Shown here piece after piece: positions 4,639-48,367 of a DNA stretch of 48,367 bases. Source of the DNA: a virus; the IMG/VR virus record IMGVR_UViG_3300045988_113246, one strand, 5' to 3'. Positions within the stretch are counted from its first letter, which is position 1. Each line of letters opens with the position of its first letter. Below the pieces are notes generated by a model, which had not been told where the DNA came from, made no database searches, and worked only from the letters and a program-made list of their open reading frames with translations. The translations under genes were made by a program, and so were the position numbers.

Positions 4639-6702
4639 ATGAGCAAACAAGTAAAAATTAGGCGTTTGACCCTTTGCAACTTCAAGGGCTTACGCAACGT
4701 AACGGTAGAGTTCAGCGAGAACACGACTACCATCAGCGGACGCAACGGCACGGGTAAAACCACCATTAAGGACGCTTTCAGTTGGCTCCTGTGGGGCAAA
4801 GACAGTGAGGGCAACACCGATAGCAAGTTTGGCATCAAGACCAACGATGCTAACGGCAACTTCATTCCCGACCTCGAACACGAAGTAAGCGGCACGTTTG
4901 ATGTAATAGACACCGAAACGGGCGCGGTTGATACCGTGGAGTTCCGCCGCGTATTGGTTGAGGAATGGAAAGTACCCAACGGCGAAACGGAGCGCGTACT
5001 GAAAGGACACCATACCGACTACTTCAGTAACGGCGTACCATTGAAAACAAAGGCAGAGTACGACAAGCGTATTAACGACATCATCCCCGAAGCCGTGTTT
5101 AAGGTAATAACAGACCCTTACTATTTTCTTACCCTTCATTGGAAGGCACAGCGCGAAATGCTCTTACAGATAGCCGGGAACGTGAGCGAAGCCGACGTAG
5201 CGAAAGATAACGCCGAGTTTGCCGCCCTTCTTGCAAGAGTGACGGGCAAGACGCTGGAGGACTACAAGCGCGAAGTAGCGGTACAGAAAAGCAAGATAAG
5301 CGACAGGCTGGAGAAGATACCCACAGCCATAGACGCAATAACGCGAGTAACGCCGACAGCACCCGACTACGCAGCTTTGGAAGCCGACAAAACACGTTTG
5401 GAAGGCGAGCTTTCAGAGATTGACACGGCGGCATCGTCGGCAGCTGAAGCCAACCGCATAGCCTACGAGAACGCGGCAAAGATACAGCAGCAAATCAACG
5501 AGCGCAAAACCGCCCAGCAAAAAGTATTCTTTGAAGCCAAGGAAGCAGCGCGTAACCAAGCCTACAAGACGAACGAAGCCTACAATAACGCTGCCCGTGA
5601 TATGCAGACATTGGACGCGCAAGCAAGAAGCGTAGAAACCGCTTATTCCAGCGACAAGGCAAGAATACAGACACGCATCCAGCAAGTACAGCGTTACACG
5701 GACGAAACCAAGAGCCAGCAGGACGCATTACGCGAAAGTTGGTACAAGGTGAACGCCGAAGAGTTCAGCGGAGAAGCAGAAAGCCTCGTTTGCCCTTTGT
5801 TCAACATCTGTTGCAAGGACGAGGAAGCGAAGGCGGCTTACAATGAGAACCGCGAAGCCGCAAGGGTAAAGTTTGGCGAGGATAAAGAAAAACGCCTTAA
5901 CACCATCAACGAGAAAGGCAAGGGACTAACGACACAGATAGAGCAGCAGGAAGCCGAGATAAGCCGACTTAACGGCGAGCTTGCAACGTTGGAAGCGAAG
6001 CACAGCACGGAAACAACAGACATAGCCAACCGCCGCGCCCTTCTTAACAAGACACTTGCAGAAAGCCCAAGAGTAAGCACAGAGCCGGACATCAAACCCG
6101 AAACGCTGCCCGAGTGGGTAAAGCTACAAGGCGAGATTACAAGCCTTACCGCGCAACTTCCAACCGCCGACACTACCAACGCAAGCAACACGGCAGAGCT
6201 ACGCCAGCGCAAGGAGAGTATAACCGCGCAGCTTAAAGGCGTGGAACGTTTGCTCGGAGTACGCACGACCATAGAAACCAACAACGCGGAGGTAGCGAAA
6301 CTTCGCGAGGAAGCCGCAAAGTTGGCGCAGGAGAAAGCCGACCTTCAGAACGAAGAAACGCTTATAGACGAGTTCACGACGGCAAGAATGAACGAGGTAG
6401 AACGCCGCGTAAACGCTTTGTTTAGCCGTGTTCAGTTCAAGATGTACCGCACACAGATAGAGGACGCGAAGCAAGTACCCGACTGCGTTTGCTACATAGA
6501 CGGTGTAAGGTACGCCGACAAGAACACAGCAGGGAAGGTAAACGCAGGGCTGGACGTGATTAACACCCTTTGCGCCTTCCACGGAGTAAGCGCACCGATA
6601 TTCATAGACAAAGCCGAGAGCGTGAACGAGTTTATCCCGGTAAACAGCCAGCTTGTAAAGTTGGTAGTTTCGACAGAAGATTTTACAGTAACAAACAGAT
6701 AA
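4639..6702 (+). CDS. SbcC/Rad50-like AAA ATPase (recombination module)
   Basis: 687 aa. N-terminal Walker A GRNGTGKTT, long central coiled coil, C-terminal IFIDKAESV (Walker B / D-loop-like). Confidence 0.75.
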   Translation: MSKQVKIRRLTLCNFKGLRNVTVEFSENTTTISGRNGTGKTTIKDAFSWLLWGKDSEGNTDSKFGIKTNDANGNFIPDLEHEVSGTFDVIDTETGAVDTVEFRRVLVEEWKVPNGETERVLKGHHTDYFSNGVPLKTKAEYDKRINDIIPEAVFKVITDPYYFLTLHWKAQREMLLQIAGNVSEADVAKDNAEFAALLARVTGKTLEDYKREVAVQKSKISDRLEKIPTAIDAITRVTPTAPDYAALEADKTRLEGELSEIDTAASSAAEANRIAYENAAKIQQQINERKTAQQKVFFEAKEAARNQAYKTNEAYNNAARDMQTLDAQARSVETAYSSDKARIQTRIQQVQRYTDETKSQQDALRESWYKVNAEEFSGEAESLVCPLFNICCKDEEAKAAYNENREAARVKFGEDKEKRLNTINEKGKGLTTQIEQQEAEISRLNGELATLEAKHSTETTDIANRRALLNKTLAESPRVSTEPDIKPETLPEWVKLQGEITSLTAQLPTADTTNASNTAELRQRKESITAQLKGVERLLGVRTTIETNNAEVAKLREEAAKLAQEKADLQNEETLIDEFTTARMNEVERRVNALFSRVQFKMYRTQIEDAKQVPDCVCYIDGVRYADKNTAGKVNAGLDVINTLCAFHGVSAPIFIDKAESVNEFIPVNSQLVKLVVSTEDFTVTNR

Positions 6703-7536: not shown

Positions 7537-8295
7537 ATGGAGCTAACCGTTATAGGGTCAAGCAGTGAGGGTAACGAATACGTCTTGCAGAACGAAAGCG
7601 AAGCCCTCCTGCTCGAAGCCGGAAAGCCATTCAAGCAAGTGCTGGCAGCTTTGAAAGGAAAAGTAAACAAGGTTGTAGGCTGTCTGATAACCCACGAACA
7701 CGGCGACCACGCAGGGCGAATAAACGAGTTCCTAAAGTACGCCCTACCTGTTTACGCTTCACAAGGCACGATAGATAACGCCAAAATACGCACAAGTTGG
7801 AAACCCACAGCCATACAGCAGACGGAGGACATGAACGGCTACCTTCCGCTTACGTTGGGTAACTTTCGGGTTATTCCATTCGCGACAAAGCACGACGCGG
7901 CAGAACCGCTCGGCTTTTACATTTGGCATGAGGAAACTGGGGGCGTTTTATTCGCTACCGACACATTCTATTTGCCGTGCAAATTCAAGGGGTTAAACAA
8001 CATTCTTATAGAATGCAACTACGACCCGGAGATATTGGCACGGAGAGTTGAAAGCGGCGACATTCCAGCAGCTTTGCAGGAGCGAGTACGAAGAAGCCAT
8101 CTAAGCTACTATACTTGTTTGGACGCATTGAGGGCGAACGACCTAACAGCGGTAAACAACATCGTACTAATCCACATAAGCGAAGGGAACGGCAACCCTA
8201 CGGCTTTCCGTGAAGGCATACAGAGGGCGACGCACAAAACGGTATATACCGCGAAGCCCGGATTAAAAATCAAGTTCAACAAAAGCCCGTTTTAG
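7537..8295 (+). CDS. Metallo-beta-lactamase-fold nuclease/hydrolase
   Basis: 252 aa with the HEHGDH motif (H-x-H-x-D-H). Confidence 0.75.
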   Translation: MELTVIGSSSEGNEYVLQNESEALLLEAGKPFKQVLAALKGKVNKVVGCLITHEHGDHAGRINEFLKYALPVYASQGTIDNAKIRTSWKPTAIQQTEDMNGYLPLTLGNFRVIPFATKHDAAEPLGFYIWHEETGGVLFATDTFYLPCKFKGLNNILIECNYDPEILARRVESGDIPAALQERVRRSHLSYYTCLDALRANDLTAVNNIVLIHISEGNGNPTAFREGIQRATHKTVYTAKPGLKIKFNKSPF

Positions 8296-8718: not shown

Positions 8719-9285
8719 ATGAAGAAGATTTTTCTATTTCAAAAGACAAACGAGGGTAGCAACCGATTGGTAGGACGCTACGACAGCACAGAGGACGCAC
8801 AAGCAAAGGCTTTGGATTTGGTAGAGAACGATGTAAATATATTCGACTTCTACATCGAAGCACGCGAGTACGAGGACATCACAAACCGCGTAAAGAGTTA
8901 CGCAGACGCTTGTAAGGTTTTGGGCATTGAACCGATGGACGAGGAAGCCATGAAGGCGCAAGGCTTCCGCCCGGACGAGATAGCACGCCGCCAGCTTGAA
9001 ACAATAACCGAAGCACTTAACGAAGGCTGGAAGCCCAACTGGGAAGATACCGACGAATACAAGTACTACCCCTACTTCTACATTGAGGTAAACGAGGTTA
9101 AGACAGAGGACGGGGACACTTCCGGCGCGAGTGCCGGGCTTTCGTACGCGAGTACGTATTACGCGGCTGCGAATACGTCTGCGCACTTCGGCTCTCGGCT
9201 TTGCTTCCACAACCGCGAAACGGCACGCTACGCCGGGCGCACATTTACCGACCTTTACGCACAAATTCTAATTGAGAAGTTATGA
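8719..9285 (+). CDS. Second (remote) DGR target protein, small and signal-less
   Basis: 188 aa from the ATG at 8719. The C-terminal SGASAGLSYASTYYAAANTSAHFGSRLCF is encoded by a sequence matching the DGR template repeat with mismatches at TR adenines plus one T-to-G at the 3' edge. Confidence 0.75.
   Translation: MKKIFLFQKTNEGSNRLVGRYDSTEDAQAKALDLVENDVNIFDFYIEAREYEDITNRVKSYADACKVLGIEPMDEEAMKAQGFRPDEIARRQLETITEALNEGWKPNWEDTDEYKYYPYFYIEVNEVKTEDGDTSGASAGLSYASTYYAAANTSAHFGSRLCFHNRETARYAGRTFTDLYAQILIEKL
9118..9205 (+). repeat. DGR variable region VR2
   Basis: 88 nt align without gaps to TR 44913..45000. I count 15 mismatches, all at TR adenines, plus one T-to-G at TR 44998. It is in the same codon phase as VR1. 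Confidence 0.8.
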
Positions 9286-42826: not shown

Positions 42827-43087
42827 ATGCAGAACAGAAACGGCGACCAAGTGAGCGCACAAATATCAGTAGCCGGGAAGGTGGACTTTTCCGGCGGCAG
42901 CTTCCGCAAAGATACCCCGTTTTGTTTGAAGAACGACGGAGAAACGGCGGTAACGCTTGAAGTGAACCTTTGGGGGATGCCCGAAGGCGAGTTTATAAGC
43001 ACACGATTTGAAACAGGCTGGAATCCCGAAATTATACGCGAGGTAAAAGCCACAAGTTTAACTAACGCCCTTGTTTGGGGCTATTAA
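42827..43087 (+). CDS. Hypothetical small protein, first gene of the DGR operon
   Basis: 86-aa ORF. Confidence 0.45.
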   Translation: MQNRNGDQVSAQISVAGKVDFSGGSFRKDTPFCLKNDGETAVTLEVNLWGMPEGEFISTRFETGWNPEIIREVKATSLTNALVWGY

Positions 43088-43098
43088 AACATACTATT

Positions 43099-44424
43099 AT
43101 GGGCATATTCATAGGTATAGGCAACACGAAGCCTACATTTCCTTACGACTACTATTATGGCGTGAAGATTGACTTAAACGTAGCAGACCCGGCACTCGTC
43201 AGAGTAGGCAGACCCGAACTGCACGTTTCGTTACCCGTTCAGTCATTGATGCGCCGCTGCTTGATTAACGACGAAGGCAAGGTAACGGCATACTTGCACC
43301 CGACTGACAGCACCAAGACGGACATGGGAGCAGCCGCCGACCTTTCGGGATCCTCCGGCATGGTCATGGTAGAGATACCCAAGCACTACCGTAAATTCGA
43401 GTTCGACGGGCAGACCGTAACCGCGCTTATTTCATTGTATCCCCTTCCGGGCTTCCACGTTGTACCGAAGATGTACCGAAGCGCATACGAAGCCACGGTA
43501 GACCGCACGGCATCGGCAACGCCAAAACTTGCAAGCGTGGTAAACACTACCGCAGCCTTCCGAGGTGGAAACAATAACGCCGCCTACGACGGAACGTATA
43601 GAACCTTCCTCGGACTTCCGGCTACGCAGATTTCATTAACCAACTTCCGCAAGTACGCACGCAACAGAGGAGCGGCAGGGCTTAACGGCGCAGGGTGGAA
43701 CTGCGACCTTTACGCCGCGCAGCTTGCAACATATTGGCTTTACGTTATTGAGTACGCCAACCTTAACAGCCAAAAGGCATTTAACGCAGAGCCAACAAGC
43801 GAGGGGTACAAGCAGGGAGGACTCGGCGACGGCGTTACTATATGGAACGGCGATTGGAACACCTACAACGGCAATTACCCAATTATTCCATGTGGCGTAA
43901 CAAATTCGTTGGGCAACCGCACGGGAGTAGTAGAATACACCGTAAGCAACGGCGACAAGATTAGCAAGACCTTTAACGTACCTTCATACCGAGGAATAGA
44001 AAACCCATTCGGGCATATTTGGTCATGGACAGACGGCTGCAAGTGTGAGATACAGAGCGAAACGGACGGAGGGCTGGCAAAGTTCTACGTTTGCGATGAC
44101 CCGGCAAAGTTCCAAGATACCAGCTACAACGACTACCAGCAGCGCGGACTATTACCGCGTAATGAAGGTTACGTTAAGCGCATGATGATAGGTGAGTACG
44201 GAGAGAACATGCCGACAGAGTTAGGCGGCAATTCCGCAACCTACTACTGCGACTATTACTATACCAATATACCAACGTCCGGGACAGCTATGCGCGGTGT
44301 CCTGTTCGGTGGTAGCGCGTATAACGGCGCGTCTGCCGGGCTTTCGTTCGCGTTTACGAATCACGCGGCTACGTCTACGTCTGCGCACTTCGGCTCTCGG
44401 CTTTGCTTTATTCCCGAAGCCTAA
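43099..44424 (+). CDS. DGR target protein 1 (tail-fibre/receptor-binding candidate with a C-type-lectin/FGE-like C-terminus)
   Basis: 441 aa from the ATG at 43099. The C-terminus GVLFGGSAYNGASAGLSFAFTNHAATSTSAHFGSRLCFIPEA is encoded by VR1. Confidence 0.8.
   Translation: MGIFIGIGNTKPTFPYDYYYGVKIDLNVADPALVRVGRPELHVSLPVQSLMRRCLINDEGKVTAYLHPTDSTKTDMGAAADLSGSSGMVMVEIPKHYRKFEFDGQTVTALISLYPLPGFHVVPKMYRSAYEATVDRTASATPKLASVVNTTAAFRGGNNNAAYDGTYRTFLGLPATQISLTNFRKYARNRGAAGLNGAGWNCDLYAAQLATYWLYVIEYANLNSQKAFNAEPTSEGYKQGGLGDGVTIWNGDWNTYNGNYPIIPCGVTNSLGNRTGVVEYTVSNGDKISKTFNVPSYRGIENPFGHIWSWTDGCKCEIQSETDGGLAKFYVCDDPAKFQDTSYNDYQQRGLLPRNEGYVKRMMIGEYGENMPTELGGNSATYYCDYYYTNIPTSGTAMRGVLFGGSAYNGASAGLSFAFTNHAATSTSAHFGSRLCFIPEA
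44296..44407 (+). repeat. DGR variable region VR1
   Basis: 112 nt align without gaps to TR 44889..45000. I count 17 mismatches at TR adenines and one T-to-G at TR 44998. Confidence 0.85.
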
Positions 44425-44448
44425 CACGCAACGATAACGTTAAACACG

Positions 44449-44483
44449 ACCCAACCGCCGCGCTCCATATTCGGCGGTTGGGT
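44449..44483 (+). other. Perfect 12-bp hairpin downstream of VR1
   Basis: acccaaccgccg / cggcggttgggt with an 11-nt loop. No U-tract. It lies 25 nt after the target stop codon. Confidence 0.5.
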
Positions 44484-44504
44484 TCAATAAAAATACATTC
44501 AGCT

Positions 44505-44864
44505 ATGAACGATAACAACAATAACAGACCAAACCAGCAGGAGGACGACGGAAGCCTCTCCTTTTTGGCAATACCGCAGGACGAAGGAAACAAGCACTTC
44601 AACTGCCGGGAAACAACACAGCAGAAACTAATAAACCTTACGTTTTGGGTTTGCGACTATATCGAAGGAGTAAAAACCAAGTTCGGCGCGGAACGCTTTT
44701 TAGTAAAGATTAAGCGCAACCGCGACGACAAGGACGCGGATGCCGAAAAGTTCTTTACCAATTCAACGGAAATAAAGTACGTTCTTAAAGAGATTAAGAA
44801 GCGCAACGCATTTCCGCGCAGAGTAACCATGAGGGCAAGCGGCACACGCTACTACTTTGAATAA
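44505..44864 (+). CDS. DGR accessory ORF in the Avd position (not recognisably Avd-like)
   Basis: 119 aa from MNDNNNNRPNQQ. It sits between VR1 and TR. The sequence (..FWVCDYIEGVKTKFGAERFLVKIK..RRVTMRASGTRYYFE) does not read as a four-helix bundle. Confidence 0.55.
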   Translation: MNDNNNNRPNQQEDDGSLSFLAIPQDEGNKHFNCRETTQQKLINLTFWVCDYIEGVKTKFGAERFLVKIKRNRDDKDADAEKFFTNSTEIKYVLKEIKKRNAFPRRVTMRASGTRYYFE

Positions 44865-44888: not shown

Positions 44889-45000
44889 GGTGTCCTGTTC
44901 GGTGGTAACGCGAATAACAGCGCGAATGCCGGGCTTTCGTACGCGAATACGAATAACGCGGCTACGAATACGAATGCGAACATCGGCTCTCAGCTATTCT
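44889..45000 (+). repeat. DGR template repeat (TR)
   Basis: Non-coding copy of VR1/VR2. Read in the VR frame it contains 10 AAY codons (GVLFGGNANNSANAGLSYANTNNAATNTNANIGSQLF). Confidence 0.85.
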
Positions 45001-45124: not shown

Positions 45125-46159
45125 ATGAAAAGGTTAGGCAACCTATACGACAAAATAATAAGCATGGATAATTTGCGACTTGCGGACGAACGCGCCCGTA
45201 AGGGCAAAACCCATTCTTACGGCGTGAGGGTACACGACAAGCACGCCGAAGCCGACCTTTTGGCTTTGCACGAAGCATTGAAAGCAGGAACTTACAAGAC
45301 TTCGGAATATAGTATTTTCACGATATACGAACCAAAGGAACGTATTATTTACCGCCTTCCATACTTTCCCGACCGCATCGTACACCACGCGATAATGAAC
45401 ATTTTGGAGCCTGTATGGGTGTCAGTATTCACGGCAGACACTTATAGCTGCATAAAAGGGCGAGGAATACAGGCGGCAGCGGATAAGGTACGGAAGGCGA
45501 TAGACCGGGACAAGCCCGGCTGCGCGTATTGTCTGAAGATAGACATACGCAAGTTTTACCCTTCAATAGACCACGACGTATTAAAGGCTATTGTTCGCCG
45601 GAAGATTAAGGACACACGGCTGCTTAAACTTTTGGACGAGATAATAGACAGCGCGGAGGGCTTGCCGATTGGTAACTACCTAAGCCAATACTTAGCAAAC
45701 CTCGTATTAACTTACTTCGACCATTGGGTAAAGGAGGTTAGACTGGTAAAGTATTACTTCCGATACGCCGACGATATTGTAGTATTGAACAGCAGCAAGA
45801 AGTATTTACGCGAATTGCTTGCCGAGTTTGAAACCTACCTTACGGGCTTGAAGCTGCATGTAAAGGACAATAAGCAGATTTTCCCGGTAGCGAAAGACCA
45901 CAAGGACAGGCACGGGCGCGGTATAGACTTCTTAGGCTTTGTGTTCTACCACAACGAAACACGGCTAAGAAAGCGTATTAAGCAGAACCTTTGCCGGAAG
46001 GTAGCCAAGTTGAGGAAAAGGAACAAGCCGCTAACTAACGAGGAGTTCAAGCAGCGCATCGCGTCATGGTGGGGATGGGCAAAACACAGCGATAGCGAGT
46101 ATTTTATTAACAAGTTAAATTCAAAGATTAAACCGTATGAAATCAAGTTCAAACGTTAG
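45125..46159 (+). CDS. DGR-type reverse transcriptase
   Basis: 344 aa. IGNYLSQ (45668..45688) is the DGR-specific [I/V]GxxxSQ motif. YADD lies at 45764..45775. There is a 124-nt spacer after TR. Confidence 0.9.
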   Translation: MKRLGNLYDKIISMDNLRLADERARKGKTHSYGVRVHDKHAEADLLALHEALKAGTYKTSEYSIFTIYEPKERIIYRLPYFPDRIVHHAIMNILEPVWVSVFTADTYSCIKGRGIQAAADKVRKAIDRDKPGCAYCLKIDIRKFYPSIDHDVLKAIVRRKIKDTRLLKLLDEIIDSAEGLPIGNYLSQYLANLVLTYFDHWVKEVRLVKYYFRYADDIVVLNSSKKYLRELLAEFETYLTGLKLHVKDNKQIFPVAKDHKDRHGRGIDFLGFVFYHNETRLRKRIKQNLCRKVAKLRKRNKPLTNEEFKQRIASWWGWAKHSDSEYFINKLNSKIKPYEIKFKR

Positions 46160-48284: not shown

Positions 48285-48313
48285 CCCGAAAAAGACCTTT
48301 TCGGGTACTTTTT
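48285..48313 (+). terminator. Rho-independent terminator after the lysis cassette
   Basis: 8-bp stem cccgaaaa / ttttcggg with a 5-nt loop, followed by tacttttt. Confidence 0.55.
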
Positions 48314-48320
48314 CGGGTAC
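48302..48320. repeat. Second copy of CGGGTACTTTTTCGGGTAC
   Basis: Exact copy of 176..194. It overlaps the terminator 3' arm and the start of the terminal overlap. Confidence 0.4.
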
Positions 48321-48367
48321 TTAAATCGTAATACCTTGATAATCAAGATTAAACGCGGAGAGAGAGG
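48313..48367. repeat. Terminal direct repeat, exact copy of 1..55
   Basis: See feature 1..55. Confidence 0.9.

Follow-up and report, generated by a model that had tools for sequence, protein, structure and literature searches.

Genes and features at the locus

The window analysed here, a stretch of 48,367 nucleotides held as IMG/VR virus record IMGVR_UViG_3300045988_113246, carries at 8719-9285 on the + strand an open reading frame whose translation is a 188-aa protein of the family phrog_11581. Inside this gene lies VR2 (9118-9205, + strand; residues 134-162), the remote one of two variable regions (VRs) that resemble a single template repeat (TR) at the other end of the linear map. The two ends of the window overlap exactly over 55 bp (1-55 = 48313-48367), which indicates a circularly closed genome with a true length of 48,312 bp and places the TR ~12.5 kb from VR2 by the short way round the circle, as the initial annotation of this DNA, made from the letters alone, had it. 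The source is a gut (Prevotella-type) phage, which is temperate, with an integrase at 196-1515, and every gene from ~2.8 kb to 24 kb is on the + strand.

Upstream of the VR2 gene an SbcC-like ATPase (4639-6702, + strand) is followed by a 321-aa protein, an MBL-fold hydrolase (phrog_392; 7537-8295, + strand) and a 132-aa protein, after which comes the VR2 gene itself. On its 3' side are, in order, a phrog_35807 protein, a DnaC-like loader, a nucleoside deoxyribosyltransferase, two DNA methyltransferases and the terminase, so that the recombination and replication setting described in the initial annotation is borne out. The order SbcC-like, SSAP-like, MBL hydrolase, 132-aa protein, VR2 gene and, further on, DnaC-like gene is kept in 20-26 of 39 related loci, a set in which identity of the small protein to that of the window goes down to ~40%. 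The stop codon of the VR2 gene overlaps the start of the next gene (ATGA), and a scan for promoters and terminators at the gene, with a sigma-70 consensus that is unsuited to Bacteroidota, gave nothing above shuffled sequences. A blastn search of the locus against GenBank phages returned no match.

Two other proteins of the window gave matches that we record in passing. The MBL-fold hydrolase at 7537-8295 had a weak, sub-threshold match to the anti-Pycsar family Apyc1 (15.8 bits against a cut-off of 50), and a stretch of the 763-aa head-morphogenesis-like protein encoded at 21472-23763 matches the Bxa ADP-ribosyltransferase family (phrog_16625, E 2.6e-71).

A single DGR with a tail-protein target

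The reverse transcriptase (RT) of the diversity-generating retroelement (DGR) is encoded at 45125-46159 on the + strand (Pfam RVT_1, E 2.8e-20), and the motifs IGNYLSQ (GxxxSQ) at residue 182 and YADD at residue 214 identify it as an RT of the DGR type. Target 1 (43075-44424, + strand; ATG start probably at 43096) is a tail protein (phrog_5302, E 5e-136) encoded downstream of the tape measure gene and another two large ORFs, and the 3' end of its gene contains VR1 (44296-44407, + strand). Searches of target 1 against Pfam and NCBIfam gave no match, and a profile of the tail-target family compared with PDB sequences returned nothing meaningful. The TR, delimited by a three-way ungapped alignment to 44889-45000 on the + strand, sits between an accessory ORF and the RT gene.

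The accessory ORF occupies 44403-44864 (+ strand), between VR1 and the TR, in the position of Avd; its first ATG, at 44505, would give 119 aa, and both size and position fit Avd. Its match is to phrog_19665, a family of unknown function, and the Pfam and NCBIfam searches gave no hit; that it is not recognisable as Avd we counted against the explanation preferred below.

Relationship of VR2 to the TR and to VR1

When the whole window was scanned without gaps with TR positions 44913-45000, only two other sites emerged: VR2, at 9118, with 72/88 identical positions, and VR1, at 44320, with 71/88. VR2 differs from the TR at 16 positions, 15 of them TR adenines and the remaining one T44998>G, whilst over TR 44889-45000 VR1 has 18 mismatches, of which 17 are at adenines and one is the same T>G. 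With 26 adenines among the 88 bases, the probability that at least 15 of the 16 VR2 mismatches fall on adenines by chance is 3e-9. Both VRs are in codon phase 0, and the changes fall on the first or second position of AAY codons and on ACG, ATC, TAC and AGC codons, about 13 codons being diversified in VR2. The ungapped alignment, the mismatch counts, the common codon phase and the translations of the initial annotation were therefore all correct.

Position 44998 is T in the window TR, G in both VRs and A in the related TRs L085 and L096, from which it follows that the T>G is probably no off-rule change; the window TR itself probably carries an A>T point mutation here, within the 3' element. 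With the sixteenth site an adenine in related TRs, the differences between VR2 and TR are restricted to TR adenines, as in a DGR target.

The 3' end of VR2 is formed by an invariant IMH-like element, GGCTCTCGGCTTTGCT (9190-9205, + strand), delimited by alignment and exactly common to VR1 and VR2, whilst the TR has GGCTCTCAGCTATTCT, which differs at fixed positions. The same element is present in 44/44 viral contig stretches recovered with a degenerate pattern, and across 120 homologues residues R160, L161 and C162 show little or no variation. We infer that GGCTCTCGGCTTTGCT and GGCTCTCAGCTATTCT form an IMH/IMH*-like pair, the putative IMH function being assigned by analogy with phage BPP-1.

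In BPP-1 a structure of the hairpin or cruciform type that follows the VR reportedly aids homing; such structures downstream of the VR are not universal among DGRs. At VR2 a downstream hairpin or cruciform was considered and rejected on the strength of a repeat search and DNA folds, no inverted repeat of at least 7 nt being found 3' of VR2 and the fold z-score being 0.89, and this result too was held against the preferred explanation. The same approaches detected an inverted repeat of 12 bp, perfect and with a loop of 11 nt, at 44449-44483 (+ strand), 42 nt after VR1 and inside the accessory ORF, which is a possible cruciform or terminator and has no counterpart at VR2.

The two VRs are neither equally long nor wholly distinct. 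Homology to the TR extends over 112 nt from 44889 for VR1 and over 88 nt from 44913 for VR2, and in VR2 its 5' limit coincides with the first diversified codon, which again counted against the preferred explanation. VR1 and VR2 differ from one another at 14 sites, all of them TR adenines and all within 44913-44968, and are identical over their last 33 nt (9173-9205, 44375-44407), a segment that includes four adenine-derived sites which vary freely in homologues. The suggestion in the initial annotation that each VR had been rewritten independently consequently stands, in this genome, only for the two thirds on the 5' side. The agreement of VR1 and VR2 runs over seven sites at the 3' end, a length reached by 0/220 between-genome VR pairs (maximum five). 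In a different sample, the 3' 44 nt of a VR2 (locus L178 4492-4579, on the same contig as L001) equal those of the window VR1. Such shared VR segments suggest either that VRs undergo gene conversion or that one allele (TSTSAHF) is selected recurrently, and in VR2 the 3' third could stem from inter-VR recombination instead of retrohoming. A strong coordination between the two VRs of a genome was also considered and rejected, as the similarity of VR1 to VR2 is 0.50 within genomes against a background of 0.41 between genomes, a difference that is partly inflated by TR polymorphism.

The identical last 33 nt, the shorter homology to the TR and the missing cruciform would all fit a VR2 that the DGR no longer rewrites, whether as an inactive relic or as a copy that ordinary recombination keeps similar to VR1. 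The differences from the TR that are specific to VR2 argue against this reading, all of them lying at adenines and being distinct from those of VR1, as does the variation among relatives described in the next section.

Variation of VR2 among related phages

Column entropy was computed from an alignment of the best 120 of 899 close homologues of the 188-aa protein. It was ~3 bits or more at residues 135, 138, 145, 147, 148, 152, 154 and 156, which correspond to AAY codons of the TR, 1-2 bits at the ACG, ATC and TAC codons, and ~1 bit or less elsewhere in the protein. Two clusters of >90% identity comprise 989 and 295 members; those listed at full length differ from one another throughout the VR and show only sporadic differences outside it. 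One database copy of the protein, P0253 (from the cluster of P0031), stops within the VR (...AGLS), as would be expected of an assembly break at the hypervariable stretch. When VR2 was compared with its own TR in three independent related IMG/VR genomes, mismatches were at adenines only (17/17, 20/20 and 16, the last figure covering the shorter homologous part of the third genome's VR2), and in all 44 of the viral contig stretches recovered with the degenerate pattern the non-adenine positions were fixed.

Positions encoded by TR adenines thus continue to vary among close relatives of the window protein, which is the reverse of what the initial annotation had named as the mark of a fossil VR, namely an absence of variation at VR2 across populations while VR1 varies. 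Entropy peaking exactly on the TR adenine codons, a different VR2 in each of the near-identical proteins listed and conserved non-adenine positions in the 44 contig stretches together led us to reject the fossil hypothesis, and we regard an inactive or merely recombining VR2 as highly improbable. Judged from these alignments, the identification of VR2 as an active trans target of the phage's DGR is well supported, and the original proposal of a genuine second, remote target for its single DGR is upheld.

The VR2 protein belongs to a large family of small proteins

The match of the 188-aa protein to phrog_11581 ("unknown function") covers residues 46-185 (E 1.2e-37) and makes it a member of this family; neither Pfam nor NCBIfam gave a match. 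Nearly all of the 899 close homologues are ~187 aa long, and one has a source name, Prevotella sp. A profile built from diverse members recovered 2,941 homologues with the core motifs in common, and an exhaustive search brought the family to 4,418 clusters at 50% identity. Family members are nearly all of 150-190 aa, with some tandem two-domain fusions, and the few that have a source name are from Bacteroidota or their phages. Four of the fusions (P0121-P0124, 277-300 aa) contain a VR-like segment in each half. The conserved core runs from approximately residue 54 to the end and can be written as ..DRVKTYEDAC..LG..DEIAYRKLKTITEALNEGWxPDW..KYYPWF..[VR]..GSRLCFKS.ELA.YAG.QF.DLY. Outside the siphovirus-like and Mu-like phages discussed below, the helical core was also matched by the 135-aa gp03 of the crAss-like Buchavirus cr109_1 (L164 3980-4387; phrog_11581, E 3.5e-13), which is without an obvious AAY-type variable segment, and the phrog_11581 scaffold may accordingly also exist without diversification.

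An AF2 model that was usable (pLDDT 81.5, pTM 0.70) needed a diverse alignment of 98 sequences, the model from close homologues only having a pLDDT of 54.6. It comprises an N-terminal beta-beta-alpha-beta domain (residues 1-50), in which the N-terminus is a beta strand, a helical core (54-101), short strands that bear the VR (~119-163) and two C-terminal helices (166-184). The VR segment is modelled at low confidence (pLDDT 51-64), and this was likewise set against the preferred explanation. No signal peptide or transmembrane segment was found in the 188-aa protein, in line with the initial annotation. The minimal C-type-lectin or FGE-like fold that had been envisaged there found no match: the best Foldseek hit in the PDB had an E value of 0.16 and was no lectin, Foldseek against BFVD returned only uncharacterised phage proteins and a DUF7336/DUF2188-like match to the N-terminal 50 residues, an HMM of the small family matched no PDB sequence, and among 98 members scanned against Pfam at E <= 5 there was no hit to FGE-sulfatase, DUF1566 or Lectin_C. 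That a C-type lectin fold was not detected for the 188-aa protein also counted against the preferred explanation.

These domain searches bear on a further alternative, in which the protein would be a sensor or superinfection-exclusion factor expressed from the prophage, with a hypervariable face that recognises incoming phages. The phage is temperate, with its integrase at 196-1515, and bacterial DGRs are said to diversify putative antigen sensors of conflict systems, both of which would suit such a role. The gene, however, forms part of a long early operon of the lytic phase and its translation is coupled to that of its neighbours, unlike a moron with its own promoter, and neither an effector nor an NTPase domain was found (Pfam and NCBIfam; Pfam scan of the 98 members), and we consider a sensor of this kind improbable, although less so than a relic VR2.

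The two targets of the DGR were compared by profile-profile alignment. With hhalign the small family and the tail-target family align over 34 columns (residues 135-168 against 410-442), and the match of the 188-aa protein to phrog_5302 is confined to residues 134-165. The likeness of KYYPYFYIE to YYCDYYYTN, which the initial annotation had taken as resemblance beyond the VR, accordingly found no support, the homology covering residues 135-168 only. A scaffold common to the 188-aa protein and target 1 was rejected, since homology stops at the VR-encoded segment; limited as it is to 34 VR-encoded residues, it indicates that the targets share a VR cassette and not a scaffold.

DGR targets of the same family in other phages

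Second VRs far from the DGR have been described before. In Quimbyvirus (Benler 2021; PMC8008677) there are two VRs, the second of which belongs to a non-structural protein encoded far away, in a defence-related island, and a later study (Nature 2025; PMC12629997) reports cultured gut prophages of four species in which counter-defence genes lie near a second, distal VR; in the available text of that study the target is not defined as one protein family. Compared with those four species, the window is without a near match among GenBank phages. The novelty implied in the initial annotation is therefore not sustained, as a distal VR in a non-structural, counter-defence setting is already described in these two publications (PMC8008677, PMC12629997).

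Matches to phrog_11581 at E values from 1e-32 to 1e-78 were obtained for the window protein, LoVEphage QVQ57199.1, Versailles WAK79127.1 and a Mu-like protein. QVQ57199.1 of LoVEphage (MW660583) was found by tblastn at 33-36% identity (phrog_11581, E 3.6e-47); its VR has 17/17 mismatches at adenines to a distal TR beside the RT, and its gene adjoins methyltransferases and RtcB, which fits the published description of Quimbyvirus. For both LoVEphage and Quimbyvirus an identity of ~95% to one and the same B. dorei prophage (CP011531) is reported, and from this we infer that the two are the same phage. Like the window, Quimbyvirus/LoVEphage has a tail-adjacent DGR and, far from it, a VR in a small protein that is non-structural and encoded near DNA methyltransferases, and the LoVEphage target, as in the window, is a phrog_11581 protein with adenine-only mismatches to a single TR. 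In contrast, the LoVEphage/Quimbyvirus genome is of ~71-75 kb whereas the window is that of a 48-kb temperate phage, VR2 is on the opposite strand there and on the same strand in the window, the RT of Quimbyvirus is split over three frames (PMC8008677) whereas that of the window is a single ORF, and the neighbourhood in LoVEphage is a methyltransferase/RtcB island instead of a recombination/replication operon.

Bacteroides phage Versailles (ON453897), a B. caecimuris prophage, shares its genome architecture with the window. The small gene follows an SbcC-like gene, a recombinase, an MBL hydrolase and a NinB-like gene, and the tail target, TR and RT are at the far end of the genome; VR2 has 14/14 mismatches at adenines to the distal TR, the sequence of which, with a GFRLC-type end, is unlike that of the window. 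The term DGR was absent from the literature that we found mentioning this phage.

The Versailles homologue (L165 5001-5582 = ON453897.1 10181-10762) is annotated as 'tail protein', a label that would favour a different reading, in which the virion contains the small protein, for instance as an accessory receptor-binding protein or tail decoration that is encoded outside the structural module, and VR2 serves host range. The TR is common to the tail protein, so that the same kind of variable peptide is displayed, and common selection could produce both the identical 3' third of VR1 and VR2 and the 44 nt shared with the VR2 of another sample. The similarity of the Versailles homologue to a tail family, however, consists of the VR segment only (phrog_5302, residues 114-161), the homology amounting to 34 VR residues, and the label is apparently an artefact of VR similarity. 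Against a virion role also stand the place of the gene inside a recombination/replication operon that is kept across distant phages, its place in the early region of the Mu-like phage (below) and a similarity of VR1 to VR2 within genomes that is barely above that between genomes, and the authors of the published studies (PMC8008677, PMC12629997) likewise read the distal target as non-structural. Taken together, we judge a virion component unlikely, and favour, from sequence features, a non-structural role for the 188-aa protein, a reading that rests on gene position, operon structure and absent export signals.

The Mu-like locus (L061, 9887-11985) has two tandem small family members followed by the TR (10806) and then the RT, each target having 11/11 mismatches to the TR at adenines. 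A transposase, a MuB-like ATPase, GemA and DUF3164 are encoded there, and the targets lie in the early region after GemA and DUF3164; no Avd-sized ORF was found between the targets, TR and RT. This DGR is apparently dedicated to small early proteins. Hankyphage was rejected as the source of the Mu-like loci, the published Hankyphage target being a protein of 2,225 aa.

Three VRs per TR were found in some related phages (L182, two matches; L192, 5576-6313 and 8333-8881; L200; L187/L188). In addition to the VRs of the tail protein and of the VR2-type gene, a third VR is in a second phrog_11581 core, at the N-terminus of a 245-aa protein encoded directly after the SbcC-like gene and 2.9 kb upstream, and a scan of the window for a second family member found none. 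Members of phrog_11581 thus occur as the remote target of siphovirus-like and LoVEphage-type phages and as the sole target of a private DGR in Mu-like phages.

The window shares with the Mtd DGR of BPP-1 an RT with GxxxSQ, an adenine-mutagenised TR/VR pair with AAY codons, and a 3' GC-rich element that tells VR from TR. BPP-1 diversifies one target only, an adjacent tail fibre whose C-type lectin fold has been solved and whose VR is followed by a cruciform, whereas the second target of the window is remote and not a tail protein, and no cruciform was found and no lectin fold detected for it.

A hypervariable protein probably made with the early genes

We consider it likely that one DGR rewrites both the tail protein and the small protein of the early operon, the latter being a non-virion hypervariable binder, and the functional part of this explanation is much less certain than the part concerning the DGR target. 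Adenine-mutagenised cDNA from the TR transcript would replace VR2, directed there by the 3' element GGCTCTCGGCTTTGCT that is exact in VR1 and VR2, and the outcome would be ~13 hypervariable residues (134-157) displayed on a conserved scaffold. The 188-aa protein is predicted to be cytoplasmic and non-virion and to be made with the early genes, and its variable face would bind a partner that itself varies, the most plausible being a factor of the host or of a competitor that takes part in phage-host conflict. A hypervariable intracellular binder in such conflict is our leading idea, as judged from the gene and its context, and the same idea is already in the literature.

A bolder proposal, which we put forward tentatively and hold to be doubtful, is that phrog_11581 proteins are dedicated antibody-like intracellular binders and the main non-tail DGR substrate in Bacteroidota phages, which would neutralise variable host defence or recombination factors early in infection; shared VR segments would then reflect the exchange of useful specificities.

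From the two publications (PMC8008677, PMC12629997), a second, distal and non-structural DGR target in gut Bacteroidota phages is already known, and since the arrangement is in the literature its discovery here is by itself incremental. What is added is that the distal VRs of LoVEphage, Versailles and the window are all in one large uncharacterised protein family, and that the window is a clean and complete example of a remote second DGR target. Cultivable models exist in Versailles, in the OMM12 strain of B. caecimuris, and in LoVEphage-type isolates, making the purpose of the diversification directly testable. Experimental knowledge of phage DGRs comes nearly all from receptor-binding tail proteins, and the recurrence of a non-tail substrate in several Bacteroidota phage backgrounds implies a second use of targeted hypermutation, inside the infected cell.
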